DNA of 39,601 bases from an uncultured Rickettsiales bacterium (GTDB lineage: Bacteria > Pseudomonadota > Alphaproteobacteria > CAJXXZ01 > CAZLVD01), in NCBI GenBank assembly GCA_964563095.1, contig CAZLVD010000001.1:50703-90303 (forward strand). Direction: 5' to 3'. Below are positions 688 through 38,665 of this stretch, one piece after another (the first letter of the stretch is position 1; each line of letters begins with the position of its first letter). A program made the position numbers and the translations under genes. Under the pieces are notes generated by a model. It was not told the DNA's origin and did no database searches. It saw only the letters and a program-made list of their open reading frames with translations.

Positions 688-840
688 ATATATAGTATAA
701 TGGTTATCATAAAAAACACAAATGTATTAAAAGATTTGAGAGTATAGAGTTGATGTAAAAGTATGTATAAAAAAACTACTTACTTCTTCTACCTTGTCTA
801 CATTTTAATCTAGGGTTTTTTGGATCGATGACATATATTG
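631..840. repeat. Copy A of a 210-bp dispersed direct repeat (partner at 1408..1617)
   Basis: Aligned by eye. The spacer part (688-840 vs 1465-1617) is almost identical with a few mismatches. The part covering the ORF N-termini is about 85% identical. Confidence 0.9.
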
Positions 841-913
841 CATGACCGCGTCTGATAATTTTACATGTCTTGCTACGTGTTTTAACTGATCTACATGATC
901 TAACTATTCTCAT
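776..913 (-). CDS. rpmJ: 50S ribosomal protein L36
   Basis: Hand translation of the minus strand gives MRIVRSCRSVKTRSKTCKIIRRGHAIYVIDPKNPRLKCRQGRRSK (45 aa). This matches the L36 pattern (K.R.S.K.....C.IV.R.G...VI...NPR.K.RQG). It is too short for the ORF track. Confidence 0.85.
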   Translation of the reverse strand: MRIVRSCRSVKTRSKTCKIIRRGHAIYVIDPKNPRLKCRQGRRSK

Positions 914-1095
914 AATGGTCAGTGTAGCATATTAATTTGAGTAAATCTAGAGAATGCATGATATAAAAAATAAAAGTTATGATAATAGATGATATATTGG
1001 CTATATTTGTAAGATTATTCAGTAAAATTACATCAATCGATATGTCTATTGTGATTTGTATATATAATAAGATTCATTATTTAGTTGGAGTTATT

Positions 1096-1464
1096 TTACT
1101 CAAATACGTTCTTGTATATAATACATATATCAGTCAATATCATACCGTGTATGAAAAAAGATGCATAATCTTTTATATATGAAGATATATTTTTATAGTC
1201 AAAGAGACTGATGAATAGTAATTTACATAATATGGAGAAGATTGCGATAAATGATATATTCTGCTTCAATGTGTTTACAAATGAACACTGGTATTCTTGT
1301 ACATTGTTGTATATAGATGTATTAACTAGCGCGCCTGATATAAAACATCCTGCTTTTATCACATTATCCAATACCTTGATGGATATAGTGCGGGCTTGCT
1401 GTGTATTGATTTTTGCCTCTGTATGAGTGATTGTGGTCGCAAGAGCTAATAATGCGTATTTCAT
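1096..1464 (-). CDS. Hypothetical small membrane protein, paralog B
   Basis: 122-aa ORF whose N-terminus MKYALLALATTITHTEAKI is nearly identical to that of ORF 220..687. It has the same upstream 150-bp repeat. Confidence 0.5.
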   Translation of the reverse strand: MKYALLALATTITHTEAKINTQQARTISIKVLDNVIKAGCFISGALVNTSIYNNVQEYQCSFVNTLKQNISFIAIFSILCKLLFISLFDYKNISSYIKDYASFFIHGMILTDICIIYKNVFE

Positions 1465-1617
1465 ATATAGAGTATAATGATTATCATAAAAAACACAAAT
1501 GTATTAAAAGATTTGAGAGTATAGAGTTGATGTAAAAGTATGTATAAAAAAACTACTTACTTCTTCTACCTTGTCTACATTTTAATCTAGGGTTTGTTTG
1601 ATCGATGACATATATTG
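1408..1617. repeat. Copy B of the 210-bp dispersed direct repeat (partner at 631..840)
   Basis: See copy A. The right boundary (1617) falls inside the sequence homologous to the rpmJ coding region. Confidence 0.9.
1553..1617 (-). pseudogene. Truncated duplicate of the rpmJ 3' end (last ~21 codons plus stop)
   Basis: The minus strand reads ..IYVIDQTNPRLKCRQGRRSK*. This is almost identical to rpmJ codons 25-45, but no start codon or N-terminal half is present. Confidence 0.8.
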
Positions 1618-1638
1618 ATGATATGATGATGAATCTAA

Positions 1639-1711
1639 CGCGCCTAAGAGGGCTCGAACCTCTGACCTTTGCTATCGGAAAGCAATACTCTTCCAACTGA
1701 GCTATAGACGC
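1639..1711 (-). tRNA. tRNA-Arg (anticodon CCG)
   Basis: Hand-folded 73-nt cloverleaf. Acceptor GCGTCTA/TAGGCGC, D arm GCTC-AGTTGGAA-GAGT, anticodon arm TTGCT-TTCCGAT-AGCAA, T arm AGAGG-TTCGAGC-CCTCT. Confidence 0.85.
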
Positions 1712-1814: not shown

Positions 1815-2165
1815 TTATTGATGTTTTGTTGCAGTAATATCTTCTACATTATCTGTATATATATGATATTTCTTATTGATTTTACGACTAATATTTTTCA
1901 CTAAATCTTCTACAGGAGCTTTGACAGTATCTTCAGACCATAATCCTGAGCGATAAGCCGAAATTAGCATTTCAAATGAATATAGTAGTATTACCCAGAT
2001 AGGCCAAAAATATCCGCCACCAGATAACGCCCATGCTACTATACAGAATCCTACTCTAAGACTTTTCCGTAAGACTTTTCTAATTAATGTTTCTACATCC
2101 ATAATGCTAAGTCTATCACAAAACATATTCTCATGGAAGAAAAATTTATATGTTTGAAGTATCAT
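1815..2165 (-). CDS. Hypothetical membrane protein (possible 2TM-domain type)
   Basis: 116-aa ORF with two adjacent hydrophobic helices (GFCIVAWALSGGGYFWPIWVILLYSF). Family assignment is tentative. Confidence 0.45.
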   Translation of the reverse strand: MILQTYKFFFHENMFCDRLSIMDVETLIRKVLRKSLRVGFCIVAWALSGGGYFWPIWVILLYSFEMLISAYRSGLWSEDTVKAPVEDLVKNISRKINKKYHIYTDNVEDITATKHQ

Positions 2166-2253
2166 CTTTATATCTTATTAATCATTCAAAGAATTCAATT
2201 AGCATAGATAACATGTGTGCAGTGACAGATCAGGACATTAATACTATAGCAAT

Positions 2254-2553
2254 TTAATATGATTGCTTTAATGAATTTAGTTTTGCTTTCTCTATACTAT
2301 GTTTTATAAGAGAATGATCATGAAAATCTGATTGTATAGTATCTGTATATGGTACATATGATGTTTTGTTTGTTAGTCTATCAGGCATTTGAATATGCAT
2401 AACTTTTTCTTCTTGGAGAGTAATTTGCTGAGATAATTTTGTAACGTGCTCTATATTGCGGAGTTTATGCTCCATGAGTAGTATTAGTTTATCAGTTGCT
2501 TGTATATGTAATTTCATTTCGCTTAATAATTCACGAAGCATATTCTCATTCAT
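2254..2553 (-). CDS. Hypothetical protein, coiled-coil-like
   Basis: 99-aa ORF with a charged heptad-like N-terminal half. No recognisable motif. Confidence 0.4.
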   Translation of the reverse strand: MNENMLRELLSEMKLHIQATDKLILLMEHKLRNIEHVTKLSQQITLQEEKVMHIQMPDRLTNKTSYVPYTDTIQSDFHDHSLIKHSIEKAKLNSLKQSY

Positions 2554-2623
2554 GAATCACTATATCAAGAGAATACTAACTTAGTGTAAAAAAATGGATT
2601 CATGTTTCCAAATAGATAATTTA

Positions 2624-3106
2624 TTAACGCCTGAAAAATACTGTGAATACGTTATATTTAAAAATTGAAAGAGGTATCATAAACAGCGCCAAGACAGTAA
2701 ATAAATTTCCGACATATCTGCTATATTCATTTTTAAATATATTACGCAATCCAAAAGCAGAAGCGCATGCTACTGCATTTATGATAAAAAACTTATTATT
2801 ATCTGCATGATGGTCTTGTTGTTTTTTAATATACAATGTGACACCTAAGGGTATAAGGTATGCAGATAATAGTAATGAATAATATATTCCATAGTATTGT
2901 ATTTGAGTTTTAGCATGATTTTCAGCAATAATTTTTACAGGCATAGTAAATTCATATAATAGATCCGCCTCAGTGAGCTGAGTACGTATAATTTCTTTCG
3001 AAGTGATTGATTCTGGATTATTCTCTGCAAAAGTAATAGAACTTAATACGCAGATTGCTTTAAATAACTTGGACATGGTGCATCGTATCATAAAATACAT
3101 GTGCAT
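2624..3106 (-). CDS. Hypothetical membrane protein
   Basis: 160-aa ORF. It has a signal-like segment (MSKLFKAICVLSSITFA) followed by about 3 hydrophobic helices. The true start is probably an internal Met. Confidence 0.5.
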   Translation of the reverse strand: MHMYFMIRCTMSKLFKAICVLSSITFAENNPESITSKEIIRTQLTEADLLYEFTMPVKIIAENHAKTQIQYYGIYYSLLLSAYLIPLGVTLYIKKQQDHHADNNKFFIINAVACASAFGLRNIFKNEYSRYVGNLFTVLALFMIPLSIFKYNVFTVFFRR

Positions 3107-3219
3107 TCAATAGATTTTATTGCTAAAGTATTAATGTGTGGAAAAATATAGTGAATTTGTGGAATGTATAAGTGTATGGGCTATCTAAGATGATGATTTA
3201 TTATATACAGACCTCAGAG

Positions 3220-3421
3220 ATAACTGTTATCAAGATATAAACAAGATATGCTCTGAAAATACTGTAGTCTAATTGAGTTAATATGCATGACTCGTGTGCA
3301 ATGAGCAGAGGATGTATATGATAACTGTTATCAAGATATAAACAAGATATGCTCTGAAAATACTGCAGTCTAATTGAGTTAATATGCATGACTCGTGTGC
3401 AATGAGCAGAGGATGTATATA
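3220..3421. repeat. Tandem duplication, 101 bp x 2
   Basis: TAACTGTTATCAAGATATAAACAAG... begins at 3221 and again at 3322. I saw one mismatch (TGTAGTC vs TGCAGTC). Confidence 0.9.
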
Positions 3422-3474
3422 ATGATTCATGAGTAGTTAGAGGAGCAGAGTATATATAGGATGTATTTATGAGT

Positions 3475-4479
3475 TTATGCTACAAGTACTTTTTTAGCTC
3501 TATATAATGTATTTTGTATAATAGGTCTTGCTTTTTGTGCTCCTTGCAATAAGATCTGTTCAAGTAGCTCATCTTGTAGCATATAATATTCATATTTTTC
3601 ACGTATAGGCGTAATAAAAGCATTGACTTTATCATATACAGTAGCTTTCACTTGAGCCCATCCTATACCTGTTTGATATTTTGACGCTAATTCGACTTTT
3701 TCAGCATCTGTTGCAAATAATGCGTAAAGTTCATATAGTGTATCCAATGCTTTTGGTTCATTCATGCCGCTAGAGTCTGTTTTGATGCCATATATAAGTT
3801 TTTTAATCTGTTCCGGTGTATCGGTAAGTTTAATGGTATTATCATAGCTCTTACTCATTTTACGTCCATCTAAACCTGTAATACTTTGTTCCATTTCGAT
3901 TTGTATATCAGGTACTACAAAGGCTGACTGTAATCCTTGAGACTCCAGATGATGATTGATTTTTATAGCTAAATCACGGCAGATTTCTATATGTTGCTTT
4001 TGATCAGGTCCTACAGGTACAATATTTACATCGACTCCTAAAATATCAGCAGCCATAAGTATAGGATATGAATAGATACCCATGCCTACAGCTTCATTTT
4101 GATTATCTTGAGCAGCCTTAAATGCATGCGATCTATCCAATACACCTTTAGTACAGAAGCAGGTCAATAACCATGCTAATTCGAAAGTCTCAGATATATC
4201 TGTTTGTAAATAAAGACAGATTTTATTTGGATCAATACCGCATGCTAGATATGTAGATAGAAGACTTTTAGTATAAAATGCATGCATCTTAGCTTCTAGA
4301 GGGGTTGTAAGAGCATGTGCATTAGCTATAAACGCGAATATTTCATGTTCTGCTTGATTTGTTGCTTGTTGATAGTCTAATAATTGCTTGATACTACCGA
4401 AATAATTTCCTAAATGTAATAATCCTGTTGGTTTAATGCCAGTCAAAATACGCATATAATGAGTATATGCTGTTTGCAA
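3475..4479 (-). CDS. trpS: Tryptophan--tRNA ligase
   Basis: Class I signatures are present: GIKPTGLLHLGNYFG (HIGH-type) and KMSKS (GRKMSKSYDN). Length fits TrpRS. The likely true start is the Met at 4455 (MRILTGIKPTG). Confidence 0.92.
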   Translation of the reverse strand: MQTAYTHYMRILTGIKPTGLLHLGNYFGSIKQLLDYQQATNQAEHEIFAFIANAHALTTPLEAKMHAFYTKSLLSTYLACGIDPNKICLYLQTDISETFELAWLLTCFCTKGVLDRSHAFKAAQDNQNEAVGMGIYSYPILMAADILGVDVNIVPVGPDQKQHIEICRDLAIKINHHLESQGLQSAFVVPDIQIEMEQSITGLDGRKMSKSYDNTIKLTDTPEQIKKLIYGIKTDSSGMNEPKALDTLYELYALFATDAEKVELASKYQTGIGWAQVKATVYDKVNAFITPIREKYEYYMLQDELLEQILLQGAQKARPIIQNTLYRAKKVLVA

Positions 4480-4575
4480 TATTTGTGAAGGGTCAAAAAA
4501 TAAAATGCAGAATATAATGCTTATTGTTGAATATATTCTATATTTCAGCAGTTTACATCAATATAACACGTCTTC

Positions 4576-4735
4576 TATGAAGAATCATTATCAGTGAGAA
4601 TATAAAAATTAATAAAACACTTACATTTCAAATGCTCTCAAGATTATTGAGATCCTATATGAAGAATCATTATCAGTGAGAATATAAAAATTAATAAAAC
4701 ACTTACATTTCAAATGCTCTCAAGATTATTGAGAT
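4576..4735. repeat. Tandem duplication, 78 identical nt x 2, period 82
   Basis: TATGAAGAATCATTATCAGTGAGAATATAAAAATTAATAAAACACTTACATTTCAAATGCTCTCAAGATTATTGAGAT is read at 4576 and again at 4658. Confidence 0.9.
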
Positions 4736-4754
4736 GATATCAATTCACCAAGTC

Positions 4755-6107
4755 TTAGCGCTGCTTTCTCATTTCATGCATTAGCTTCTGATACTCTTGA
4801 CCTATGCTTAATGAGGCGATTTGAGTCATAATTTCATTAGTAACACCAACTATAATTAAAATACTTGTACCGCCGAATAAAATCTGTAGCCCGCTCAATT
4901 TAATAATGATCTCAGGTAATAGACATATGATCACTAAATATAGACCAGAGATTGACGCTAATCGATTTAATAGATATTCTAAGAAAGATACTGTATCCTG
5001 ACCCATACGTACGCCCTCAATCATTCTCATATTATGTTGTAAATCTTGAGCTGTTTCTTCAGGATCTAATGTAAGTGGCGCTGTTACAAAAGCTAATGAG
5101 AAAATGAGTAATCCAAATGCAATAGCGAAGAATGTATCTGTAAGAATGAATCTAGACATACTAGGCATAATGACAGATAATGTTTTTGGCAATGATAAGA
5201 GTCCGCTAGCAATCATAGGAGCCATCACACCGCCAACATTTAATTTGACAGGTATTTCATTTGGAATACTATTATGCATTAAATGTCTTTGACTTTGAAT
5301 TGCAACGACTTTTACAGCTCTATATGCCTGATCGAAAAACGCTGCTACTAGCATGAGACCTAAGATTAATCCTATATCTAAAAACAATATGTAATTACTC
5401 AATAAGTTAGCTCTTAGATACATGCTGATTTTGTTGATAGATGAAGGAATGCTTGCAACGATGCTTGTATAGATAATTATAGAAGAGCCTTGTCCTATGC
5501 CTCTATCGGTAATTTGTTCGCTGATCCAGATTAAGAAGAATGTACCTGCAGTTAATGTAATGACTGTAGAGAATTTAAAGAAAAAACCTGGCATGGCTAC
5601 AGCTGGCATGTTTAATATATCGGACTTTTGTCTTTCAAGCATCCAGGCAACTCCATACGATTGGATTACTGTCAATACTAATGCTATATAACGAGTATAT
5701 TGATTACGAGTTTTTTGTCCTGATTCACCATCTTTTTTCAATGCTTGTAATGTAGGCGACATAGTTGTATATAATTGAATAATCATACTTGCTGTAATAT
5801 ACGGGGATAAGCTCATCATGAAGATAGTAGCTCTTTCAATTGATCCTCCAGAGAACAGATTAAGCATAGACATTACTCCTCCTGCTGATTGATTCACAAT
5901 ATCTTTTAATACATCAGCATTTAAGCCAGGTACAGGTATATATGATCCAAAGCGATATATTAACACTACGAATAATGTAAAGCCTGCTCTAAGCCATAAT
6001 TCATTAGAAGAAAAATCCATTTTATGCTTTTTGCTAGATTTCTCTGTTACCTGAGGATTCAAGCGCAATATTAATGGTTTTATTTTGTTCAATATTGTTG
6101 TAAACAT
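4755..6107 (-). CDS. secY: Protein translocase subunit SecY
   Basis: 450 aa with about 10 hydrophobic segments. SecY-typical blocks: RFGSYIPVPG, LFSGGSIERATIFMMSLSPYITASMIIQL, RYIALVLTVIQS, WISEQITDRGIGQGSSIII. The start may be the internal Met at about 6020. Confidence 0.93.
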   Translation of the reverse strand: MFTTILNKIKPLILRLNPQVTEKSSKKHKMDFSSNELWLRAGFTLFVVLIYRFGSYIPVPGLNADVLKDIVNQSAGGVMSMLNLFSGGSIERATIFMMSLSPYITASMIIQLYTTMSPTLQALKKDGESGQKTRNQYTRYIALVLTVIQSYGVAWMLERQKSDILNMPAVAMPGFFFKFSTVITLTAGTFFLIWISEQITDRGIGQGSSIIIYTSIVASIPSSINKISMYLRANLLSNYILFLDIGLILGLMLVAAFFDQAYRAVKVVAIQSQRHLMHNSIPNEIPVKLNVGGVMAPMIASGLLSLPKTLSVIMPSMSRFILTDTFFAIAFGLLIFSLAFVTAPLTLDPEETAQDLQHNMRMIEGVRMGQDTVSFLEYLLNRLASISGLYLVIICLLPEIIIKLSGLQILFGGTSILIIVGVTNEIMTQIASLSIGQEYQKLMHEMRKQR

Positions 6108-6374
6108 AGAATATGATAAAACAAAAGAGAACAGCTTGCAAGATGAAATAACTGGTAGCGTGCGAATTTAATTCACATGATACATACTGATAATATTAAA
6201 AATGTGATAGATAATGCATATATAGTCAAAGATATAAATCCAAATGTTGTATAAAAGCAGTATAAGAAATGAAATAATGCATATAAACAGCTTTTTAGAT
6301 ACTTCGTGCAATATATATTTTTTCTAGATCTTGTAAGAAATGCTAAAATATGTAAAAATTTCTAGAGGTCTTGT

Positions 6375-6902
6375 TTGAAGATAAAAGATAAACATATTAA
6401 GAGAAATCCTAGAAAAGATAATCAAATTCGTATACCTATCATTGATCTAATAGATAGTAATGGTGTATATCATAAAAGCATTAGTACAATCTCTGCTATG
6501 CAAATGGCTGAGAGTGTAGGATTGAATCTTGTTGAAATACGTGCTGATAGTAATCCGCCGTTATGTAAAATTATGGATTATGGTAAGAATCAGTATGAAG
6601 AAAAGAAAAAAGCATCTGCAGCACGTAAGAATCATAAAGAAATTAAAATTAAAGAATTTAAATTAACGCCAAATATTGGACAGCATGATATTGATATCAA
6701 AATTAAACATGCTCGTACTGAGATCATGGAGGGTAATCAGGTTAAGGTCATCTTAAAATATAAGAAACGTGAGATTATACATAAGGATGTTGGTATAGAG
6801 ACAGTTAAGCGCTTTTTGGAAGGTTTGTCAGATATTGGTCAGTATGCTACCCCTACAGTAATAGGTAATCAATGTGTATGTGTAGTGCAGCAAAAAGTGT
6901 AG
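6375..6902 (+). CDS. infC: Translation initiation factor IF-3
   Basis: NQIRIPIIDLIDSNG...GLNLVEIRADSNPPLCKIMDYGKNQYEEKKK matches the IF-3 N-domain and linker. There is no in-frame ATG upstream of the conserved core. A TTG at 6375 is preceded by AGAGG. Confidence 0.9.
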   Translation: MKIKDKHIKRNPRKDNQIRIPIIDLIDSNGVYHKSISTISAMQMAESVGLNLVEIRADSNPPLCKIMDYGKNQYEEKKKASAARKNHKEIKIKEFKLTPNIGQHDIDIKIKHARTEIMEGNQVKVILKYKKREIIHKDVGIETVKRFLEGLSDIGQYATPTVIGNQCVCVVQQKV

Positions 6903-6943
6903 AGTATACTTTCAAATATCAATCATATAATTCCTTAGAAGTA

Positions 6944-7372
6944 CTATAAGCTCAGTAAAAAATTGATTAATATAAAGCATAATGTACTGATAGTGCTATA
7001 CAAATGAGTACGTATCATGATGATCAAACATTTGCTTGTAAATAACCATGTTGTATGAGTGTGGATATAGTCAACTATAGGATATAACACAATATCCAAG
7101 AAAAGATTTACAGCAAGCATATTCAGAATAATAGGTAGTGTGAGTGTAATGTTATGAGAGAATAATGATGGCATGTATGTATTTGGTATGAGCAGACGTA
7201 TAGGTGCGAGGATTATATAACTCATTGCGATTGAGATGCTACAATATGCAAAAAATTTAATAATTTTTGAGATGTATGGATTATCTGGCGATAATTGCTC
7301 GACTGTATATGTTAATGTTTTTTCATATTTCGACTTATACAGTAATGATCTGAAGAAATCTATTATAATCAT
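6944..7372 (-). CDS. Hypothetical membrane protein
   Basis: 142-aa ORF with about 4 hydrophobic segments. No family recognised. Confidence 0.45.
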   Translation of the reverse strand: MIIIDFFRSLLYKSKYEKTLTYTVEQLSPDNPYISKIIKFFAYCSISIAMSYIILAPIRLLIPNTYMPSLFSHNITLTLPIILNMLAVNLFLDIVLYPIVDYIHTHTTWLFTSKCLIIMIRTHLYSTISTLCFILINFLLSL

Positions 7373-7414
7373 AAAAAAGAATATATAGTATAAATTTTAA
7401 TAAAGTACTGAAAT

Positions 7415-8416
7415 TTGTATAAAATTTTTACAATATTATCAAATCTGATATCATTCAATATGAAGTTATGTGTAACAAATGTAAGTGATATGTTAGGTAA
7501 GCGTGTTTTGAGTATGCTAGAGAATATATTGACAGAGCAAGATATATTGATGATTATATCTGATATTCCTCAAAAGATACGTTTTAAAAATAAAATCATA
7601 CATACTAATATCTTTCATCATCATATGTTAAAAGATCTAGATGCGATTGTGAATACTGACGCGGAATTGACTCAGCAGATTTTGGAATGTATAGATCCAA
7701 AGACATTTTTAATTGATACTACGCATATTATAAAACATCATACTGATACAGTATTAATTGATTTATCTAATATAGAATCTATAAAACAGCATGATAATAT
7801 AAAGAAATTATTGCCATTAGCACATATAGTAACGCTGGGTATTTGTACCATATTACGGAGTATTTTATCGAAGTGTCAGTTTGATTTTGTGTCATTAAAT
7901 ACATGTCAGTCTATTTCAGATGCAGGGATTAAAGCAATGAAAGCATTAGATAGAGAGAGAAAGCATGAAGAAATGCACATACATGATAATCCGCAGTTTT
8001 TCGATAACTATATATATTCTAATGTAATTCCTGGTATAGGTGCAATAGATAGCTATTTACATACTAGTGATGAAAAGCAGATAATAGGTGAAGTAAAGCG
8101 TTTATTGGATCATGATATCAGTATATCTGTTACATGTGTGCATGTGCCTATTAAAATAGGTCATGTGATTTCTGTACAAATGCATACTAAACACGATGTG
8201 AATTTAGATTCTATTGCGCAAATATTGCATAAAAATCCAGATATTATTTTAGTAGAAAAACCAGTGAATATTACTCCGAAGGATGCTATAGGACATGAGC
8301 AGATTATAATATCTCGTTTACGTATAACAGATGGAGGGATTTCGTTTATTGCTACGTATGATAATCTTACATTGCAAGCTAAGACTATTGAGAGAATGTT
8401 AAATTTATTACGTTGA
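7415..8416 (+). CDS. asd: Aspartate-semialdehyde dehydrogenase homolog, divergent (cofactor loop and one substrate Arg not conserved)
   Basis: Colinear with short-type Asd: GICTI (cf PNCSTI), NTCQSISDAG (cf STYQAVSGAG), TCVHVPIKIGH (cf TCVR.PV..GH), IISRLRITDG (cf VGRIR.D) and YDNL (cf DNL.KGAA). The N-terminal GxxGxxG is replaced by VTNVSDMLG. The probable start is the ATG at 7460. Confidence 0.55.
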   Translation: MYKIFTILSNLISFNMKLCVTNVSDMLGKRVLSMLENILTEQDILMIISDIPQKIRFKNKIIHTNIFHHHMLKDLDAIVNTDAELTQQILECIDPKTFLIDTTHIIKHHTDTVLIDLSNIESIKQHDNIKKLLPLAHIVTLGICTILRSILSKCQFDFVSLNTCQSISDAGIKAMKALDRERKHEEMHIHDNPQFFDNYIYSNVIPGIGAIDSYLHTSDEKQIIGEVKRLLDHDISISVTCVHVPIKIGHVISVQMHTKHDVNLDSIAQILHKNPDIILVEKPVNITPKDAIGHEQIIISRLRITDGGISFIATYDNLTLQAKTIERMLNLLR

Positions 8417-8556
8417 TGTACTATTGTGCAGAATAAGAGATGTAAGAGCAAGATAGCAACAGAGCTCAGCATGACATAACAGATTATATGCATAATTACG
8501 AATTACTATATAAAATAAAAGTAGCCGGACAGATGAGATATAAGATTCATTTTTAA

Positions 8557-10212
8557 TTATTCACGCAAAGCATATTTTTCTAAATTGATTTGTTTATCAA
8601 AGATATCTCCAAGTATTTCCTGACCATTATGCATACATATAATAATGGAGCTATTTGGCAAGGACTCACATATCATTTTCATCAATACTTGACTCTCGTG
8701 ATTGTCTATATTACTGAACGGTTCATCAAGGAAAATTGCATTATATTTATCATCAGATTGATATAGTAATCTTGCAAGTTGTATCTTCTGACGCTCACCT
8801 GCAGATAAATTTTGCATATTTAATGTTTTATATAATGGTAATATTTTGCTTAAGATATATTCTATTTGCTGTTTATCACAATGATCACATGGATATGCTA
8901 CATTTGCGAAAATATCTCCTTCAATAACCAGTGTTTTATGCGGTAAGAAGAATAGTTTGGTAGTAGCCGGTGTGGATATTGTACCTGAAGCAGTTGTATA
9001 ATGTCCATGTAGAGCGCTCAATAAAGTTGTTTTACCAGTACCCGATTTACCATATATTAAGATATGTTCGCGTGGAGCAATATGTAAGTTGACGTTATGT
9101 AAAATCATTTTCATAGTATTGTCTGTTGGGACAAATATCGTGGCATTTATATGAATATTGCTATCAAGAGATTTAGCTTGTATCAAACCAGTGGCAGATA
9201 CATTCATACAAGTATCATAAATTTCATTTAATCGTTTCATGGATACACTGATTTCAGAAAATTTATCAGTATTTTGAGTTATAAATACTAAATTATACAA
9301 GATATACCATAGTAATGATGCGGCATATACTGTATCGTAAGTAGTAGCTAATCCTGCGCATGCTAATGGAGTAAATAATAAACGCCCCATATTGCTATTC
9401 ATTGTATTTACTATAGACTGTACAAAACCAGATAATGTTTTAATGATCATAATTTTTCTTTGCGCATTAATATTCATATGTACGGTTTGCTTAATATGTG
9501 TAAAAGTAGCTTCTTTACCATTGAACATAGCTATAGCAGAACTCATTTGATCAGTACCTTTAATAGTACGACGTAGAGCGCCTTCGGTTTCTAAAAATTG
9601 TTCATGATAGTATTGTATATAGTGCTTAAATATGAGATTCAACATACTGAATAGTAAAGCAAGCAGGATTACAATAATAGCAATTTTTCCTATACCATTG
9701 CCGCATTTTTGTATTTCATTAATGAATTTAGGTGTATATATACAGAGCTGTATGAGTGCAGTAGTAGCTCCATGCAATAATTCTCCCAGTGTAATAGAAA
9801 TTGATTTTATATCATCTGTCAGACGTTTATCTATATTTTCTATATTATGATGAGTGAAGTGCTTGCTAGAAATCCAACAATTTACAAGTTGCTGAGTAAT
9901 TGTCTGTTTCCAATATAATGTTATATATTTTTTTAAAAATAATGAGGTATAATAAATCGCAGTAGAACCAGCTGCTATTATTAAAAATCTATATGCAAGA
10001 GCAAATATTTCTGATCTGGAAGTGGATGTATTGAGTAATGCGAAGATTCTACTGGAGGCTTGAATAGATGCATTTTGTACATATGCATATAATATTAATA
10101 TAATCAAAATTGATATACATATACTCACTGATTGCATACTGAAAAAAATACTTTGCAACATTCTGCGAAATAATTTTTGTACATTGACTTTGGACATATC
10201 ACAGCATATCAT
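8557..10212 (-). CDS. ABC transporter, fused permease/ATP-binding half-transporter
   Basis: N-terminal half has about 5-6 TM segments. C-terminal half has Walker A (GKSGTGKTT), ABC signature (LSAGERQKIQLARLL), Walker B (IFLDEP) and an H-loop (ICMHN). YddA/SbmA-like subfamily is a guess. Confidence 0.8.
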   Translation of the reverse strand: MICCDMSKVNVQKLFRRMLQSIFFSMQSVSICISILIILILYAYVQNASIQASSRIFALLNTSTSRSEIFALAYRFLIIAAGSTAIYYTSLFLKKYITLYWKQTITQQLVNCWISSKHFTHHNIENIDKRLTDDIKSISITLGELLHGATTALIQLCIYTPKFINEIQKCGNGIGKIAIIVILLALLFSMLNLIFKHYIQYYHEQFLETEGALRRTIKGTDQMSSAIAMFNGKEATFTHIKQTVHMNINAQRKIMIIKTLSGFVQSIVNTMNSNMGRLLFTPLACAGLATTYDTVYAASLLWYILYNLVFITQNTDKFSEISVSMKRLNEIYDTCMNVSATGLIQAKSLDSNIHINATIFVPTDNTMKMILHNVNLHIAPREHILIYGKSGTGKTTLLSALHGHYTTASGTISTPATTKLFFLPHKTLVIEGDIFANVAYPCDHCDKQQIEYILSKILPLYKTLNMQNLSAGERQKIQLARLLYQSDDKYNAIFLDEPFSNIDNHESQVLMKMICESLPNSSIIICMHNGQEILGDIFDKQINLEKYALRE

Positions 10213-10225
10213 TTTTGCGATATTA

Positions 10226-10549
10226 TTATATATTGATTGTAAAATTATTTATGATCATGCTTGTCAGATCTTTTTTCAATTCACTAAAATCTGCTGATAT
10301 AATATTTTTTTTCGGATACAACATGCAGTCTATTGGAAGATGCTGACTTAATTCACGTACTATATGTCTAATGCGTCTCTTGATTTTATTACGTACAACA
10401 GCATTGCCAATTTTTCTACCTATTTTCAAAATGATTTTGCCTGCTACGTTATCTGCAGGCTTGGAGGTATAATGAAAGAATGAAGTATCTATTCTAGATA
10501 ATATAGCTAACTCTTTATATCTTGATAGCTTCATTTTTGTTTTATACAT
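10226..10549 (-). CDS. rnpA: Ribonuclease P protein component
   Basis: Basic RNR-type motif GNAVVRNKIKRRIRHIVRE, about 107 aa, located downstream of rpmH as in most bacteria. Confidence 0.8.
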   Translation of the reverse strand: MYKTKMKLSRYKELAILSRIDTSFFHYTSKPADNVAGKIILKIGRKIGNAVVRNKIKRRIRHIVRELSQHLPIDCMLYPKKNIISADFSELKKDLTSMIINNFTINI

Positions 10550-10574
10550 ATACTTATCATTGCATAATTTCTAA

Positions 10575-10620
10575 GCGATGTGTAGAGATAGTTTATGTGC
10601 GATGTGTAGAGATAGTTTAT
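10575..10620. repeat. 22-nt direct repeat x 2 (period 24) in the rpmH-rnpA spacer
   Basis: GCGATGTGTAGAGATAGTTTAT is read at 10575 and again at 10599. Confidence 0.85.
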
Positions 10621-10709
10621 TGATGAATGATTTACGTAATGATATATAAAAGTATGTGCGTATATGAAATGTTCACAATGCTTTTATATTTTGGAAAGAA
10701 AGTGAGATA

Positions 10710-10859
10710 TTACTTAACTGGCTTATCATATGCTAATACATGTCTACCTTTAGCTCTACGTCTGTTAATTACATCTCTGCCACCAACAGTAGACATGCGT
10801 GCTCTGAAACCGATTTTACGTCTTACACTTCTTTTACCTTTATATGTTTGATATGCCAT
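10710..10859 (-). CDS. rpmH: 50S ribosomal protein L34
   Basis: Hand translation gives [49 protein letters not shown] (49 aa). The L34 core GFRARM....GR.V...RRAKGR is present. The track only shows the antisense ORF 10627..10851. Confidence 0.88.
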
Positions 10860-10907
10860 TTCAAAATATTCTAACAAAAAACCAGTCTTATTGCAATATG
10901 TATCTCG

Positions 10908-12155
10908 ATGTTATTTATATTTTTATGTTATTATTGTGTTATGATTTTTACCAGAAAAACAATCGGTTTATTAATTAGTATAGTTGAATGGTATGATTTT
11001 GCTATATACGCCATGTTTATTAAAGAGATTACAAAGAGTTTTTTTAATAATTACGCTACCATGTATGCTGGATTATATTCATTTTTAATACTATCTGTAG
11101 CTTATCTATTTAGACCTATAGGAGCATATATATTTGGGCAAATTACTGATATATGTGATGAAAATAGATCATTGCAAATATCATTATTTATGATGGCTAT
11201 ATCGAGTTTATTGGTATGTACCGTTCCCGAGAATAATATCATAGGTATCATTATACTAGTTTTAGTGCGGATTATACAGGGAATTGCTATGGGTGGTTGT
11301 TATGGCATGTCTTATGTATATGTGGTAGCAAATACTGAGGAAAATAAAAATTATGCAGCATCATTTATATGTATTGGCTTTATTCTTGGATTTATTATGG
11401 GACAAATGATGAATGTACTCTTAGGTATGTATACTGATCATTCTTTTTTAGCTCAATATGGATGGAGGCTAGCGTTTATGCTTGGTGCTCTGATGTCGCT
11501 ATGTGTCATACAAATGATTGGATACAAACGTGATGAAAATTATTGTAATACCAATCAAGTTCAGAAATCTCATACATATAAGTATATGTATCAGATGTCT
11601 AGCAATGAGAATATGTCTAGAACAAATATAGGATACATGTATTTTATCACTAGTATCTTAGTTGTAGGATTAGATATTCTTGGATTTTATTTGCTGTTTG
11701 TTTACAATAAGTATTTAATGCAACATACTTTGCATTTAAGTGCAACATACATCGATATATATAATATGTTCTTATTATTATGTTTATGGCCTATTATAGT
11801 CATGTTTGCTAAGCTGTCAGACGCATATGGATGTAGAAAAATTTTATTATTTTCAGGTGTATTATTTACAATAATGATATGTATCCTGCCATGGTGTAGT
11901 TTGTATACATTAATACCAATGTTATTAATGCTAGGTTCATGTTATGGTTCATTACCTGTATGGATGGTAGAGAGATTTCAATATTATCCTGCAAAAGTTG
12001 GATTAAGTTTCAATATTGCTGCGGCTTGTTTTAATATTCTACTCTCAATATTAGCGCCTATATCTGTAAATTCTGGAATACATATCTTCAAGGGTATTTT
12101 AATGATGATTGGATTGATGATATGTAGTATTGTGTATATGGATCAGAGAATTTAA
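10908..12155 (+). CDS. MFS transporter, proline/betaine (ProP/MHS)-like
   Basis: About 12 hydrophobic segments. The N-terminal [12 protein letters not shown] motif is typical of MHS/ProP-family transporters, which are common in Rickettsiales-type genomes. Confidence 0.7.
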
Positions 12156-26800: not shown

Positions 26801-26857
26801 ATTACAAGATTACTTTCTTCTTTGACGAATACGATTATCTGTGCGTTTATTATTACA
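26801..26857 (-). pseudogene. Duplicated fragment of the rplB 3' end (last ~16 codons, stop and 9 nt)
   Basis: ATTACAAGATTACTTTCTTCTTTGACGAATACGATTATCTGT(G/A)CGTTTATTATTAC is read at 26801 and again at 26898. The latter copy is the genuine rplB terminus. One mismatch. Confidence 0.85.
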
Positions 26858-26906
26858 TAATATTGACCGATATTATTTGAAACTCTATCTGAATATAATT
26901 ACAAGA

Positions 26907-27734
26907 TTACTTTCTTCTTTGACGAATACGATTATCTGTACGTTTATTATTACGTGTTTTGAAGCCTTTAGCTGGGATACCTGTTCTAGAACAAGGATGA
27001 CGACCACCTGAAGATTTACCATTACCACCACCCATTGGATGATCAATAGGGTTCTTGGCAACAGCTCTAACGCGAGGTCTAATACCTTTATGTCTATTTT
27101 TACCAGCTTTTGATAAATGCTCATTCATATGATCGCCATTAGATACAATACCGATTGTAGCCATGCAGTTACCATGTATTGTGCTTAATTCACCAGAAGG
27201 CATGCGTACTAATACAGAAGTACCCTCGTGACCAAGAATTTGCAATGAAGATCCAGCTGATTTAGCTATCTGACCGCCTTTACCAATCTTTAATTCTACA
27301 TTATGAACGAAGAAACCGAGAGGTATATTTTTGATCTGTGTAGCATTACCATCTTTCATTGGAATCGCATCACCAGACATAATTTTATCACCTGTTTTCA
27401 TCTTGTCTGTAGATAAGATGTATGCTTTAGCTCCATCTTCATACTGCACTAATGCTAAAAATGCTGTTCTATTTGGATCATATTCAAAACGTACTACTGT
27501 ACCTTCTTTATTCCAATGAACTAAACGCTTACTATCAACCACACGTAATACTTTCTTATGTGCTGCTGAACCGCGTCTAGGTGATGTGATATGACCGTGA
27601 TGGTTACGACCACCTGTTCTTGTTACGCCAAATGTTAATGATTTTTCTGGCTTACCTCTCCATAATCCACGTTTATCTACAAGTGTTAAATGTCTTCTAG
27701 ATGACGTGGTAGGCTTATAATGTATTAATGCCAT
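26907..27734 (-). CDS. rplB: 50S ribosomal protein L2
   Basis: 275 aa with typical L2 blocks: GRNHHGHITSPRRGS, VVRFEYDPNRTAFLALVQYEDG, GNGKSSGGRHP. Confidence 0.95.
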   Translation of the reverse strand: MALIHYKPTTSSRRHLTLVDKRGLWRGKPEKSLTFGVTRTGGRNHHGHITSPRRGSAAHKKVLRVVDSKRLVHWNKEGTVVRFEYDPNRTAFLALVQYEDGAKAYILSTDKMKTGDKIMSGDAIPMKDGNATQIKNIPLGFFVHNVELKIGKGGQIAKSAGSSLQILGHEGTSVLVRMPSGELSTIHGNCMATIGIVSNGDHMNEHLSKAGKNRHKGIRPRVRAVAKNPIDHPMGGGNGKSSGGRHPCSRTGIPAKGFKTRNNKRTDNRIRQRRK

Positions 27735-27862
27735 GTTTTACTCCTCGATAAGTATTCCATTTATTGTAGCAGGCTCGATATAATATAGCAAGAGTATATT
27801 CGTATTTTTTACAGATGATTAGCAGAGTTTATTGTTCGCGAGAAAAAATATACTAGTCAGAG

Positions 27863-27981: not shown

Positions 27982-28347
27982 TTATGCCTGTAAGAAATCA
28001 AAATTTGCATCAGCTGGAAGGAAAATCATAGCTTTCTTGATCTTACCTGTATTTACTTCTACTGTTTTATACTTACTTCCTGCACGCTTTCTTAATGATT
28101 TCGTTTTACCTGGCAATGTCACAGTATTTACAGCTAATGGTTTGATATTAAACAAATTTTCGAAAGATGTTTTGATAGCTAATTTTGTAGCATCCAACTG
28201 TACTTGTACAACATACACTTTACGATTACCTAAATCATAAGCCTTTTGTGTGCTCCATGCGCCTATAAAAAGACTTTGTTGCCAATGATTAGAATAACGT
28301 TTTGCTTGCTCATTTTTCAAAGCTTTGATATATTTTGGCATAGTCAT
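27982..28347 (-). CDS. rplW: 50S ribosomal protein L23
   Basis: VVQVQLDATKLAIKTSFENLFNIKPLAVNTVTLPGKTK...KKAMIFL matches the L23 core (v..V...AtK.eIK.a.e.lF.vkv..VNT....GK.k...wKKA.V.L). Confidence 0.85.
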   Translation of the reverse strand: MTMPKYIKALKNEQAKRYSNHWQQSLFIGAWSTQKAYDLGNRKVYVVQVQLDATKLAIKTSFENLFNIKPLAVNTVTLPGKTKSLRKRAGSKYKTVEVNTGKIKKAMIFLPADANFDFLQA

Positions 28348-28430
28348 ATTAACCTACTTCAGTAACAAGTATATATGATTTCATGTTTTTTACAATGATA
28401 TTTTATCAAAAATCAGCCTATATCTAGTTC

Positions 28431-28678
28431 TCAGTGATATCCATGTTGTAATCTATGAGTTATCATGATGGAGTGATCTGATAGGGATGATGCTGCAGGA
28501 TCTATGGAGTGAGATCAGGATACATGTATTTTATTGTAAAATCTTTATATGATCTCAGTGATATCCATGTTGTAATATATGAGCTATCATGATGTAGTGA
28601 TCTGATAGGGATGATGCTGCAGGATCTATGGAGTGAGATAAGTATACATGTATTTTATTGTAAAATCTTTATATGAGC
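28431..28678. repeat. Tandem duplication, 124 bp x 2 (about 95% identical)
   Basis: TCAGTGATATCCATGTTGTAAT... starts at 28431 and at 28555, with about 6 mismatches. It lies between the tRNA-Arg(ACG) 3' end and the rplW start. Confidence 0.9.
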
Positions 28679-28690
28679 TCTTGTAATACA

Positions 28691-28763
28691 CACGCTTGAG
28701 ATGATTCGAACACCCAACCTTTGCATCCGTAGTGCAATGCTCTATCCGTTGAGCTACAAGCGT
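28691..28763 (-). tRNA. tRNA-Arg (anticodon ACG)
   Basis: Hand-folded 73-nt cloverleaf. Acceptor ACGCTTG/CAAGCGT, D arm GCTC-AACGGATA-GAGC, anticodon arm TTGCA-CTACGGA-TGCAA, T arm GGGTG-TTCGAAT-CATCT (two G-T pairs). Confidence 0.85.
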
Positions 28764-28855
28764 ATCAATATTATTGTAATACATTTTACTATCTGCTGCA
28801 AGTTCAAAATTATAATATCATAATAAAAAATTTGCAGACTGATTGAAGCTTTATT

Positions 28856-29512
28856 ATGAATAAAATATGTTATCATGAAAAATTATTCGCATGTTGCATG
28901 TTTTCACAATCTTTTGTTTTTTTATTTAAACTAGTGCATGCTAGATATGACTATACTGATGGTCGCTGGTATTGTAATTACTCACCAAATTTATATACAT
29001 TCGATTTACTGAATGAACAAGGTGTATCATTGAGATTATCACAGAGACATACTTTAAAACATTCAAGTCCGTTTTATTGGGATTTACCTGTTGCGTCATG
29101 GGAATATTATCTAAATACAAAAGATGCTTCGACTCCATGTATGATGCTTGCTGGTATATATTTCTTGCGATACTTCAGTCAGAGATATTATAACTATTTT
29201 ACCAAGAGATACAGTGATATTAATGCTAAAACTGACAAAACTGAAGAAGACATGAAATTTAAATCTAGAAGCATGTATATAGAAATTGGATTATTAATAT
29301 TAAGCTTGCGTCTGTATTCGATAGGACATGAATTTCATAGAACTGCAAGAACAATGAAAAGATATTATTTCGGGGTTTGTCTCAAATGGTTTGCTGCTTT
29401 GTTATTCTGGTCATTGATAGAAATAGAATATTATAAGTTCTATAAATGTAAATCAATAAGTGCAGCAGATACAGTATCTTCTACTACACCTGATAATATA
29501 TCAAATACTTAA
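28856..29512 (+). CDS. Hypothetical membrane protein (ORFan)
   Basis: 218-aa ORF, aromatic-rich, with about 3 hydrophobic segments. No family recognised. Confidence 0.45.
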   Translation: MNKICYHEKLFACCMFSQSFVFLFKLVHARYDYTDGRWYCNYSPNLYTFDLLNEQGVSLRLSQRHTLKHSSPFYWDLPVASWEYYLNTKDASTPCMMLAGIYFLRYFSQRYYNYFTKRYSDINAKTDKTEEDMKFKSRSMYIEIGLLILSLRLYSIGHEFHRTARTMKRYYFGVCLKWFAALLFWSLIEIEYYKFYKCKSISAADTVSSTTPDNISNT

Positions 29513-29523
29513 TCTTGTAAAAA

Positions 29524-30063
29524 TTATACAAATTTCTTATCTAGATGTTCTGTTATATTTTCTAATACTTTTGAATCTATACTGAGCATAAATTTATATG
29601 TGACTTTTTGCCAATCTTCAAGACGTACATGATCTAGTAGATATTTAGATAAATCACCATTTGGACCAGGATGTCCGACTCCAATTTTTACCCTATAAAA
29701 TCCCGAACCGAAATGTGCAATCATATTTCTTAGTCCATTATGTCCTTTAGCACTTCCATCTTTACTAATTTTGATTACTCCTGGATTTATCATAGCCTCA
29801 TCATGTAATGCAACGATATCTTCGGTATTAAATTTATACTTATATTGTATTGCTTTAAGAGTTTCTCCGCTACTATTGATATTTAAGCGATTTGAATAAG
29901 TATATATAATATTCTCTTTTTTATATATCATATATTCTTTAGTCTCTTCAAAAGTCCAAGACTGCTGTTCTGCTATTAATTTGAGACATTCCGCTCCAAT
30001 GCTATGCCATGTACGATTATATTGTTTTTCTGGATTACACAAACCAAAAATGACTTTATACAT
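29524..30063 (-). CDS. pth: Peptidyl-tRNA hydrolase
   Basis: VIFGLCNPEKQYNRTWHSIG (cf GLGNPG..Y..TRHN.G), HDEAMINPGVIKISKDGSAKGHNGLRNMI (cf HDDLDL..G..r.K.gGG..GHNGLkSi) and RVKIGVGHPG. Start placed at MYKVIFGL (30063); the ORF extends to 30126. Confidence 0.85.
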   Translation of the reverse strand: MYKVIFGLCNPEKQYNRTWHSIGAECLKLIAEQQSWTFEETKEYMIYKKENIIYTYSNRLNINSSGETLKAIQYKYKFNTEDIVALHDEAMINPGVIKISKDGSAKGHNGLRNMIAHFGSGFYRVKIGVGHPGPNGDLSKYLLDHVRLEDWQKVTYKFMLSIDSKVLENITEHLDKKFV

Positions 30064-31518: not shown

Positions 31519-31521
31519 GTA

Positions 31522-37051: not shown

Positions 37052-37060
37052 TATACAATC

Positions 37061-37522
37061 CTATATGCAATGAAATAATGCGCAGGCTAAAGCATCTGTA
37101 GCATCAAAATTATTCCGAATATCTATATTCAATATACCGCATACATATTGTGCGACGAGATCCTTTTCAGCTCCTCCATCACCTGTAATTTTTTTCTTAA
37201 TAACACGAGTAGGTACATTAATCAGTTCGCAATTATATCTTGCAGAGCATAACACCGCCATAGATCTTGCCATACCTAATTTAATTATAGTATTACGATT
37301 GATACTAGCGAAAATCTCCTCTATCACCATAACATTTGGTTTATAGATAGATAAAAAATGACTAAGTTGCTCGAATAAAGAATTCAGTCGATTTTCCAGA
37401 TTATGAGTAGGCTTAGTCATCATGACTGCATGGGTAATGTATTTAGGTCTATTATTTACAAGTTCTATTAAACCTACTCCCATTTTATGCAAACCAGGAT
37501 CTATACCTACAATTAATGTCAT
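37061..37522 (-). CDS. ruvC: Crossover junction endodeoxyribonuclease RuvC
   Basis: N-terminal IVGIDPGLHKMGVGLIE (catalytic Asp), internal VMVIEEIFAS (Glu) and C-terminal DATDALACAL (Asp pair). 153 aa. Confidence 0.88.
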   Translation of the reverse strand: MTLIVGIDPGLHKMGVGLIELVNNRPKYITHAVMMTKPTHNLENRLNSLFEQLSHFLSIYKPNVMVIEEIFASINRNTIIKLGMARSMAVLCSARYNCELINVPTRVIKKKITGDGGAEKDLVAQYVCGILNIDIRNNFDATDALACALFHCI

Positions 37523-37701
37523 TTATTAATTACAGTATATATAGTTATATTTAAAAACTAAAATACTTTGTAGTAAAAAACTTTTTTAACTAAATAAGAG
37601 TATGATAGTAATGAATGCTGTGAAAAAATCTAGAAAATCATATAAGTCTATTTTTATTTTGAGAAAAACATGTTACAATAGTGCCAACGAGAGAGGCTAT
37701 A

Positions 37702-38127
37702 ATGTTAGTTGATAGATTGGCTAATGTATTGACATCCATACGAAATGCAGGTATGAGAGGGTTAGATACTGTGTCTGTTAATGTAAATAAACATGTGCTA
37801 GAAGTATTGAATGCTCTAAAATCACATGGATGTATCGGAGTTATTACGAGTTATGATAATGGTACTGCTGCACAATGTGTGAAAGTTGAATTGCTTTATA
37901 CAAAGAATCATGAGCATGTAATACAGCAAGTTCAACGTGTATCAAGAGTATCGAATAGAATTTATAAAGATGTGAAAGAATTAAAACGTTTATCATATCG
38001 TTTTATTGATAAATTGTATTTGGTTTCTACAAGCAAAGGTATTTTATCTGCGCAAGAAGCTGCAAAGCAAAATCTTGGCGGTGAAGTATTGTTGTTTGTG
38101 TCCAAAATAGGACAGGGGGTGATGTAA
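37702..38127 (+). CDS. rpsH: 30S ribosomal protein S8
   Basis: MLVDRLANVLTSIRNAGMRG matches the S8 N-terminus (D.iaDmLTrIRNa). The C-terminus has STSKGILS..EA...N.GGEVL. Start set at ATG 37702, preceded by GAGAGG; the track ORF begins at GTG 37681. Confidence 0.9.
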   Translation: MLVDRLANVLTSIRNAGMRGLDTVSVNVNKHVLEVLNALKSHGCIGVITSYDNGTAAQCVKVELLYTKNHEHVIQQVQRVSRVSNRIYKDVKELKRLSYRFIDKLYLVSTSKGILSAQEAAKQNLGGEVLLFVSKIGQGVM

Positions 38128-38128
38128 G

Positions 38129-38665
38129 ATGTCAAAAATCGGAAAGAGACCTGTAACAATACCAGCTGGTGTAAAAGTTCATTTCGAACACGGAGTATGT
38201 ACTGTAAGTCACGGAGCTAACAAGCAAACAGTTAATGTACCTTATTTCTTAGATTGTAAAATCGAAAAAGATATATTAAATGTAGTGCCTTTGAGATTAC
38301 GTGATAAGCATATGCGTGCAATGTGGGGTACAATTCGTGCATTGATAGCAAATGCTGTAGAAGGTTTGACAAAAGGATACGAAAAGAATCTTGAATTAAA
38401 AGGTCTTGGTTATAAGGCTGAAGTAAAAGGTTCAAATACAGAATTATTCTTAGGATACAGTCATATAGTGAAGTTTGCGAATCCAGAAGATGTAAAAATC
38501 AAGTGCGCAAAGCCTACACATATCGTAATTAATGGTCATGATAAGCAACGTGTTGGACAAGTAGCTGCAAACTTAAAGAGACTCAGAAAACATAATAGAT
38601 ACAAGGATTATGGTATTCATGAAATGGGTCAATGGCGTTATGTCAAGGTTCGTAAGAGCAAGTAA
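38129..38665 (+). CDS. rplF: 50S ribosomal protein L6
   Basis: MSKIGKRPVTIPAGVKV..., GLTKGYEKNLELKGLGYKAEVKG, LGYSH. It begins 1 nt after the rpsH stop, as in spc operons. Confidence 0.92.
   Translation: MSKIGKRPVTIPAGVKVHFEHGVCTVSHGANKQTVNVPYFLDCKIEKDILNVVPLRLRDKHMRAMWGTIRALIANAVEGLTKGYEKNLELKGLGYKAEVKGSNTELFLGYSHIVKFANPEDVKIKCAKPTHIVINGHDKQRVGQVAANLKRLRKHNRYKDYGIHEMGQWRYVKVRKSK

Follow-up and report, generated by a model that had tools for sequence, protein, structure and literature searches.

Can the near-universal order of the bacterial ribosomal protein genes be taken apart almost to single genes while every gene in it is kept? The question is raised by a stretch of DNA of 39,601 nucleotides, hereafter called the window, from an uncultured Rickettsiales bacterium (GTDB lineage Bacteria; Pseudomonadota; Alphaproteobacteria; CAJXXZ01; CAZLVD01; assembly GCA_964563095.1, contig CAZLVD010000001.1, positions 50,703 to 90,303 of the forward strand), in which members of the S10-spc-alpha ribosomal protein supercluster stand in separate islands. 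The str-S10-spc-alpha order is the textbook case of a gene order under selection across bacteria, and its persistence is commonly put down to co-regulation, stoichiometric balance, coupled translation, assembly during translation and gene dosage close to the origin. The S10-spc-alpha cluster is a prominent exception to the rapid decay of gene order (PMC8046335, PMC6735719). A preliminary description of the window had claimed that the supercluster is shattered there into four unlinked islands, and that this implies extensive past rearrangement and a promoter of its own for each fragment. Our analysis bears out the shattering and finds it understated, since the break-up extends over the whole genome. 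The reading that we put forward, with a probability of roughly 0.78, is that a clade-wide and nearly operon-free gene arrangement has arisen through small rearrangements, which were tolerated since most genes appear to be self-promoted.

Extent of the cluster break-up

The genome is a reduced one of about 0.54 Mb (539 kb, nine scaffolds, 31% G+C) and is seen in freshwater and wastewater metagenomes. It is available as a scaffolded metagenome assembly of 39 N-free contigs with a CheckM completeness of 76% and an estimated contamination of 1%. The window corresponds to C1:50703-90303, which is a single whole contig of its scaffold (39.6 kb, no N). Genes were located genome-wide by searching E. 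coli proteins with phmmer against all six-frame open reading frames (ORFs). All 28 genes of the S10-spc-alpha cluster and the four genes of the str operon were found in one copy each, spread over scaffolds C1-C5, and the ribosomal protein genes absent from the window, which the preliminary description had left to be located, are thereby accounted for. Leaving out rpmJ and rpsD, which lie outside the cluster already in alphaproteobacterial relatives, the remaining 26 cluster genes are distributed over 19 pieces. Most of these pieces consist of one gene, they occur in both orientations, and they are spread over at least five scaffolds. Only 7 of the 25 canonical adjacencies are kept (rplW-rplB, rplV-rpsC, rpsQ-rplN-rplX-rplE, rpsH-rplF and rpsM-rpsK) and 18 are broken. 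The cluster genes themselves are intact and conserved across the relatives.

Most of the other deeply conserved operons are also dissolved, so the loss is not limited to the S10-spc-alpha genes. The str operon has come apart completely (rpsL, rpsG, fusA and tuf are all separate); rplK, rplA, rplJ and rpoBC are apart from one another, as are infC and rplT, the genes rpsP, trmD and rplS, the genes rpsB, tsf and frr, and the genes atpA, atpD, atpG and atpB. The pairs secE-nusG and rpmH-rnpA persist. Coding sequence takes up about 82% of the genome, and the median spacer measures 120 nt. Of the 40 translation genes (ribosomal, rpo, tuf and fus), only 17 are on the leading strand as inferred from GC skew (the strand bias in G and C content). 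The skew is positive over nearly all scaffolds, and 55% of all genes are located on the inferred leading strand. Scaffold C1 makes up 38% of the genome and holds 22 of the 32 str, S10, spc and alpha genes, twelve of them within C1:122-163 kb, which suggests that, if the scaffolding is correct, the cluster was partly broken up in place.

Gene identities in the window were assigned from Pfam matches passing the cut-offs. The solitary secY (4755-6107, minus strand; PF00344, E 7e-74) lies, as had been described, between infC and trpS. The trpS gene is its downstream neighbour (3475-4479, minus; PF00579, E 2e-53), while infC (6375-6902, plus; assigned by Pfam) is divergent from it. Upstream of secY there is no rplO, which is present on scaffold C3, and downstream there is neither adk nor rpsM, the latter being 96 kb off. 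The infC gene for its part is without rpmI-rplT, rplT being found at C1:110 kb. The pair rplW (27982-28347, minus; PF00276, E 3e-16) and rplB (26907-27734, minus; PF00181 and PF03947) has tRNA-Arg(ACG) upstream (28690-28764, minus) and a spacer of 484 bp downstream (26423-26906), in agreement with the earlier estimate of about 480 bp. Even within this pair the spacer is expanded to 247 nt, as compared to 24-56 nt in relatives. The third island consists of rpsH (37702-38127, plus; with the ATG at 37702 as the conserved start and a GTG at 37681 as the first codon of the open frame) and rplF (38129-38665, plus), which follows after 1 nt. It is flanked by the divergent ruvC upstream (37061-37522, minus; PF02075) and by an ORFan with no Pfam hit on record downstream (38901-39601, plus), and rplR is not next to it but on scaffold C4.

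The fourth island is the solitary rpmJ (776-913, minus; 45 aa; PF00444, E 5e-9), which is kept in the relatives L097 and L098. It is located near tRNA-Arg(CCG) (1638-1712, minus) and between two ORFans without Pfam match, ORFan A downstream (220-687, minus) and ORFan B (1096-1464, minus). These are genuine paralogs, 31% identical over 112 aa (E 7e-14), and the sole members of their family in the genome, so that the description of rpmJ as lying between ORFan paralogs stands. Its isolation as a part of the derived shattering does not stand, because rpmJ and rpsD lie outside the cluster in the alphaproteobacterial relatives, in none of which rpmJ was found between secY and rpsM. Of the four islands only rpsH-rplF is on the plus strand, the other three being on the minus strand. 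The genes between the islands include pth, trxB, argS and a lone tssF of the type VI secretion system (T6SS).

Relatives and independent assemblies

The canonical order was found at all of 61 rplB loci taken from many phyla (Dependentiae, Pseudomonadota, Omnitrophota, Verrucomicrobiota, Candidate Phyla Radiation and Bacteroidota among them) and at all of 11 secY loci of the same class; the named SecY and L2 hits, on which the class-level placement rests, are from Alphaproteobacteria. All members of the same GTDB order have genomes of 0.4-0.8 Mb. In 7 of 12 genomes of this order (G001, G004, G005, G006, G008, G010 and G012) the str-S10-spc-alpha cluster is intact, and in the remaining five it lies in 2-4 pieces. 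The intact cluster is therefore most simply ancestral to the order, and the shattered cluster is most simply a derived state of this lineage.

A full-genome comparison with two complete relatives (G004 and G001), using the same crude ORF caller for all three, bears out the earlier claim of extensive past rearrangement. On these crude ORF calls, 57% of neighbouring genes lie on the same strand here versus 63-65% in the two relatives, the mean same-strand run is 2.1 genes versus 2.7-2.85, and tight same-strand neighbour pairs amount to 13% versus 26% and 36%. Conservation of neighbour pairs is 5% with either relative but 22-23% between the two relatives for proteins that have diverged equally far (about 36% identity between reciprocal best hits), and 24 of the 28 neighbour pairs common to G004 and G001 are broken here.

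A chimeric or misassembled contig was the one finding that could have overturned the preliminary description, and the junctions are not an assembly artefact. There is no canonical adjacency of which both partners lie at contig edges, so joining of contigs restores none. Two contigs of 21 and 27 kb from one run in the Logan collection are colinear with the window and 100% identical to it. One of them spans rpoBC...infC-secY, and the other, with the order response regulator-AAA-ruvC-rpsH-rplF-ORFans...rpsS, bridges the scaffold gap at the window end. In a second sample and run the junctions are the same, at 99.97% identity. Four samples from two studies yield unitigs that tile both the trpS-secY spacer and the rplW-rplB island, without any loose ends that would compete. 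As side observations, scaffold ends overlap by exactly 55 nt in the orders C6-C1-C3rc and C4-C5-C7-C2-C9, the assembly graph therefore being nearly closed, and C8 is a redundant copy of C2:56-3898.

The borders are also reproduced in diverged relatives, which were assembled from other samples via other pipelines (Logan, ENA, NCBI). The arrangement asd-infC followed by divergent secY is present in relatives whose SecY is 84, 63, 57 and 55% identical. In the first three of these trpS lies downstream, the secY-trpS junction being common to L097, L098 and L100. The order pth-rplW-rplB-...-tssF occurs in a relative at 79% L2 identity, and isolated rplW-rplB pairs in other contexts, with a solitary rpsJ or rpmD close by, at 67% and 61%. 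Divergent ruvC and rpsH-rplF without rplR were found at 63% L6 identity (L107) in three assemblies. Since diverged relatives share these derived junctions, the state is old and clade-wide. A scan of JGI metagenome contigs with SecY gave no match. The relative L100 (57% SecY identity, infC divergent from secY-trpS) is NCBI GCA_029981695.1, contig JARVMK010274819.1, whose contig numbering suggests a very large, possibly eukaryotic, genome project and may point to a host.

Candidate promoters of the separated genes

Both secY and rpsH point away from the genes upstream of them; read-through from those genes is therefore not possible, and each of the two needs a promoter of its own. Upstream of secY a promoter-like site, TTGCAA-17-TATCAT (6113-6141, minus), ends 5 nt before the ATG, and its -10 box and spacing are kept in four relatives at 55-84% SecY identity. 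The candidate promoter of rpsH is an extended -10 box, TGTTACAAT (37671-37679, plus), 22 nt before the ATG at 37702 and followed by a GAGAGG Shine-Dalgarno sequence; the block AAAAACATGTTACAAT is kept in L105 and L107. For rplW, the promoter-like site TTGTAA-16-TATACT (28368-28395, minus) lies about 25 nt upstream, is followed by a Shine-Dalgarno sequence and is kept in L101, L102 and L103 despite different upstream genes. For rpmJ, the site TAGATT-17-TGCTACACT (921-949, minus) ends 7 nt before the ATG, is of leaderless type and is kept in L097 and L098. The boxes of these four genes are conserved where the spacers are otherwise unalignable. The proposal that each fragment has its own promoter is supported by the divergent geometry together with these conserved sigma-70-type boxes, as far as promoters can be predicted from sequence. 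A further promoter-like site, TGCTACAAT (TTGCTA-17-TACAAT with a TG extension; 27763-27791, minus), followed by a GAGGAG Shine-Dalgarno sequence, sits before rplB inside the expanded 247-nt spacer of the rplW-rplB pair.

Most of the other genes that come first in their fragments, including fusA, rpsS, rpsQ, rpmD, rplO, rpoA, rpsB, rplS, rplK, rplP and rpsE, carry a -10 box, plain or extended, either 5-9 nt or 20-30 nt upstream, and the internal genes of the mini-operons (rpsC, rplN, rplX, rplF and rpsK) have a Shine-Dalgarno sequence only. Genome-wide, 74 genes have the motif TGnTAnnnT ending exactly 5-6 nt ahead of the predicted start, and 178 have TAnnnT ending there, against a background of about 25 per position (about 50 for both). 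This suggests leaderless transcripts, with a putative -10 box 5-6 nt before some 130-180 start codons. The relative G001 has the same -10 peak at 6 nt, and G004 has a broad peak at 23-27 nt instead.

Scans of the island borders gave almost no intrinsic terminators, and rho is present in the genome. A search of the window with Rfam returned three tRNAs only and no ribosomal protein leaders. Sparse RNA contigs from three wastewater RNA runs cover parts of rplB, rpsH-rplF, secY and rpoBC. One of these contigs spans the junction of rpsH and rplF, and one starts at 37697, past the predicted rpsH promoter, a position that is not evidence for a transcription start site.

Rearrangement and the probable origin of the scattered order

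The 539 kb hold 85 tandem repeats whose period is 25 nt or more. Fifty of these are young, near-identical two-copy duplications located in spacers, versus 10 and 4 in the two complete relatives (5-12 times as many). Several adjoin the islands. A duplication of 2 x 82 nt (98% identical; 4571-4734) fills the secY-trpS spacer, and its copy junction is spanned by unitigs from three samples. Another of 2 x 124 nt (96% identical; 28429-28676), with its copy junction spanned by a unitig, lies between tRNA-Arg and rplW. Downstream of rplB, a duplication with a 97-nt period (26799-26953) has carried a copy of the final 47 nt of the gene, together with the stop codon, into the spacer. Strains differ in this duplication, a 34-nt replacement being found in runs X1-X3. 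In L103 (61% L2 identity) a tandem repeat of 94 nt x 2.1 (10802-11001) starts in the last rplB codons, so the rplB 3' end was hit independently in two lineages. Elsewhere in the genome tandem duplications also adjoin rpsJ, rpsE, rplD, rplO and rpsP. Contig breaks often fall on tandem repeats.

A remnant of the rpmJ 3' end (about the last 20 codons; 1553-1617, minus) lies directly after tRNA-Arg(CCG). It belongs to a 217-nt repeat, 1401-1617 matching 624-840 at 94% identity, which takes in the 3' end of rpmJ, a spacer and the initial 64 nt of the ORFan. Over their bodies the two ORFans are only 31% identical as against 94% for this segment, suggesting a recent conversion or copy event over an older duplication. 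In L097 an intact rpmJ occupies the position of the remnant, after the same tRNA, and here the intact copy is found one ORFan further on. When the long spacers were searched for remnants of the neighbouring genes, only the rplB 3' copy was significant.

As to whether fragment borders coincide with repeats, local tandem duplications do lie at several borders, but dispersed repeats do not. Self-BLAST of the genome gave no dispersed repeats of at least 100 nt except the redundant scaffold and one 533-nt pair of 73% identity. No insertion sequence (IS) elements were found in this self-comparison, only local tandem repeats and the 55-nt assembler overlaps, and the window has no long dispersed repeats. 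A single inversion of about 9 kb (orf1815...rnpA; window 1815-10877) separates L097 (84% SecY identity) from this genome. It splits the near-universal rpmH-rnpA pair in L097, and the relative at 63%, taken as outgroup, shows the order found here to be the earlier one. Change is still going on, as this inversion and the strain-polymorphic duplications indicate.

Taken together, we favour a gradual and active process of small-scale inversion and duplication-loss under relaxed constraint over a burst of IS elements or an adaptive redesign. The ancestral str-S10-spc-alpha supercluster has been dismantled almost gene by gene in this lineage. The events behind it would be small inversions and local duplications followed by loss, built up in large numbers over a long period and probably fixed by drift in a small, slow-growing and probably host-restricted population. 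Each piece may now be transcribed as a separate unit from a sigma-70-type promoter belonging to it, in many cases one with an extended -10 box (TGnTAnnnT). This promoter would be placed either 5-7 nt before the start codon (leaderless type, as predicted for rpmJ and secY) or 20-30 nt upstream and followed by a Shine-Dalgarno sequence (as predicted for rplW, rplB and rpsH). Dependence on an upstream gene would be confined to the surviving mini-operons (rplF, rpsC, rplN, rplX and rpsK). Termination would presumably be Rho-dependent, given the near absence of intrinsic terminators and the presence of rho. Separation may have been tolerated because self-promoted genes lose little by it.

Several points weigh against the explanation as a whole. 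The metagenome assembly is fragmented (39 contigs, CheckM 76%), and the Logan contigs that match at 100% were probably built from the same reads by a different assembler. Consensus promoter scans of the island borders found no more sites than in shuffled sequence, and were used only to locate sites later supported by conservation. The RNA contigs are too sparse to define transcript ends or start sites. G001 has the leaderless-type -10 peak and yet an intact cluster, so that a promoter for each gene is by itself not enough to account for the shattering. No more than two gene remnants were found in spacers, those of rpmJ and of the 3' end of rplB, and the copy number of perfect tandem repeats may have been set by the assembler. 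Drift in a host-restricted population is an assumption drawn from genome size and from the relatives, and the cause of the shattering is itself something that we infer.

A bolder version of the gradual reading, which we hold tentatively and at somewhat less than even odds, is that a clade of reduced alphaproteobacteria has essentially given up operons. Most genes would be monocistronic, with many leaderless messenger RNAs starting at the ATG, gene order would be near-neutral and drifting, and stoichiometry would be kept without co-transcription, translational coupling or operon-level autogenous feedback.

Among the rival explanations, scrambling by mobile elements survives best, though we consider it unlikely. 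According to it, a past burst of IS elements or repeats shuffled the genome and the elements were later purged during reduction. The location of pieces on both strands is what inversions between inverted repeats would give, recA and ruvC are retained, and a tyrosine-recombinase (Phage_integrase) gene lies near rpmB and rpmJ in two relatives. That integrase, however, may simply be XerC/D. Neither dispersed repeats nor IS elements were found in the genome, and rearrangement continues without them, as the L097 inversion and the polymorphic duplications indicate. Loss of recombination or mismatch repair was also considered as a cause and rejected, recA and mutS being present in this genome and in all 12 relatives; ruvC is retained here.

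Adaptive re-partitioning, in which selection favoured separate genes for individual regulation, positional dosage or shorter polycistronic transcripts, appears less probable still. The derived junctions and promoters are stable down to 55-63% protein identity, and the promoters are well conserved where the surrounding spacers are not, as such selection might produce. The dissolution is, however, not specific to the ribosome, since the atp, rpsB-tsf, trmD and infC operons are dissolved as well and neighbour conservation is only 5%. Gene orientation is almost random, the order is still shifting between close relatives, and the presence of only 17 of 40 translation genes on the GC-skew leading strand speaks for relaxed constraint and not for optimisation. 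That the islands are chimeric joins, or come from a mixed-organism bin whose true genome has a normal cluster, is scarcely credible: a scaffolded assembly of 39 N-free contigs with ends often on tandem repeats, matched by contigs probably built from the same reads, would leave room for it, but each cluster gene occurs exactly once at an estimated contamination of 1%, the four islands lie within one gap-free contig of 39.6 kb, and the same junctions recur in the second sample, in unitigs of four samples from two studies and in relatives at 55-84% SecY, 61-79% L2 and 63% L6 identity.

In comparison to the canonical S10-spc-alpha supercluster, the same gene set is present here, each gene once and intact, and a few core pairs are kept, but the contiguous one-strand order from rpsJ to rplQ is absent (7 of 25 adjacencies, 19 pieces). 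In published splits of the supercluster whole operons are parted by insertions, whereas here the breakage is inside operons and goes down to single genes. Among Alphaproteobacteria, Orientia tsutsugamushi and Wolbachia have undergone repeat-driven shuffling, their genomes being full of IS elements and repeats, and, as far as is known, still keep the ribosomal protein cluster. The bacterium described here resembles them in its class, in the retention of recombination genes and in a heavily rearranged genome, but has no dispersed repeats and has lost the cluster. The tandem duplication-random loss model, which accounts for changes of gene order in animal mitochondria, has a possible likeness here in local tandem duplications that carry gene ends or whole small genes and in the rpmJ remnant. 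Two cases bear on it, the duplicated unit of rpmJ and ORFan and the copy of the 3' end of rplB; the other spacers are without recognisable remnants. That model preserves the strand, whereas both strands and a 9-kb inversion are involved here, so it is not the sole mechanism.

The closest likeness in gene arrangement is with Nanoarchaeum equitans, whose genome is described, with reference to the genome paper, as being without conserved operonic structures (PMC3491384). Like that of N. equitans, a dependent organism, the present genome is about 0.5 Mb in size and has its conserved operons, including the ribosomal ones, dissolved, and the genome-wide operon dissolution, near-random orientation and few tight same-strand pairs of N. 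equitans are all seen here. N. equitans is, however, an archaeon that is extremely gene-dense and has many split genes. The present genome has neither very high gene density nor split genes; it is about 82% coding, with a 120-nt median spacer, a fused rpoBC and many young tandem duplications.

We found no description of this phenomenon in the literature on fragmented S10 and spc clusters in endosymbionts or under the accessions of the runs and the assembly, and no published description of a dissolution of the S10-spc-alpha cluster to the level of single genes in a bacterium. A review of the Holosporales and a preprint on diplonemid endosymbionts do not mention gene order. What we describe is not a new molecular system but an extreme and apparently undescribed gene arrangement for Bacteria. 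With 18 of 25 links broken and every gene intact and conserved, none of the usual explanations of the cluster can be an absolute requirement. If the bolder reading of a clade that has given up operons is true, the lineage would be a bacterial counterpart of N. equitans and a natural experiment for asking what keeps the ribosomal supercluster together almost everywhere else. The lineage spans several relatives from species to family level. It offers a system for testing how ribosomal protein levels are balanced from about 19 promoters, for asking if the known feedback operators persist and for asking whether leaderless one-gene transcription frees gene order to drift. On the practical side, synteny-based binning, marker extraction and phylogenomics that rely on this cluster will fail for the clade.

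Some further features of the window may be added. A tandem repeat lies at 3219-3420. At 29458-29591 strains are polymorphic, runs X1 and X2 having one 134-nt copy more. The retained rpmH-rnpA pair is located at 10226-10877 (minus). The tssF gene (23495-25189; PF05947, E 8e-58) is full-length and without T6SS neighbours, and it holds the same lone position near rplB in the relative L101. The genes rpoB and rpoC are fused into one frame of 2823 aa (14763-23234, plus), with a HIT-family gene upstream instead of rplKAJL; the fusion is in frame and is also present in L097 (2812 aa).

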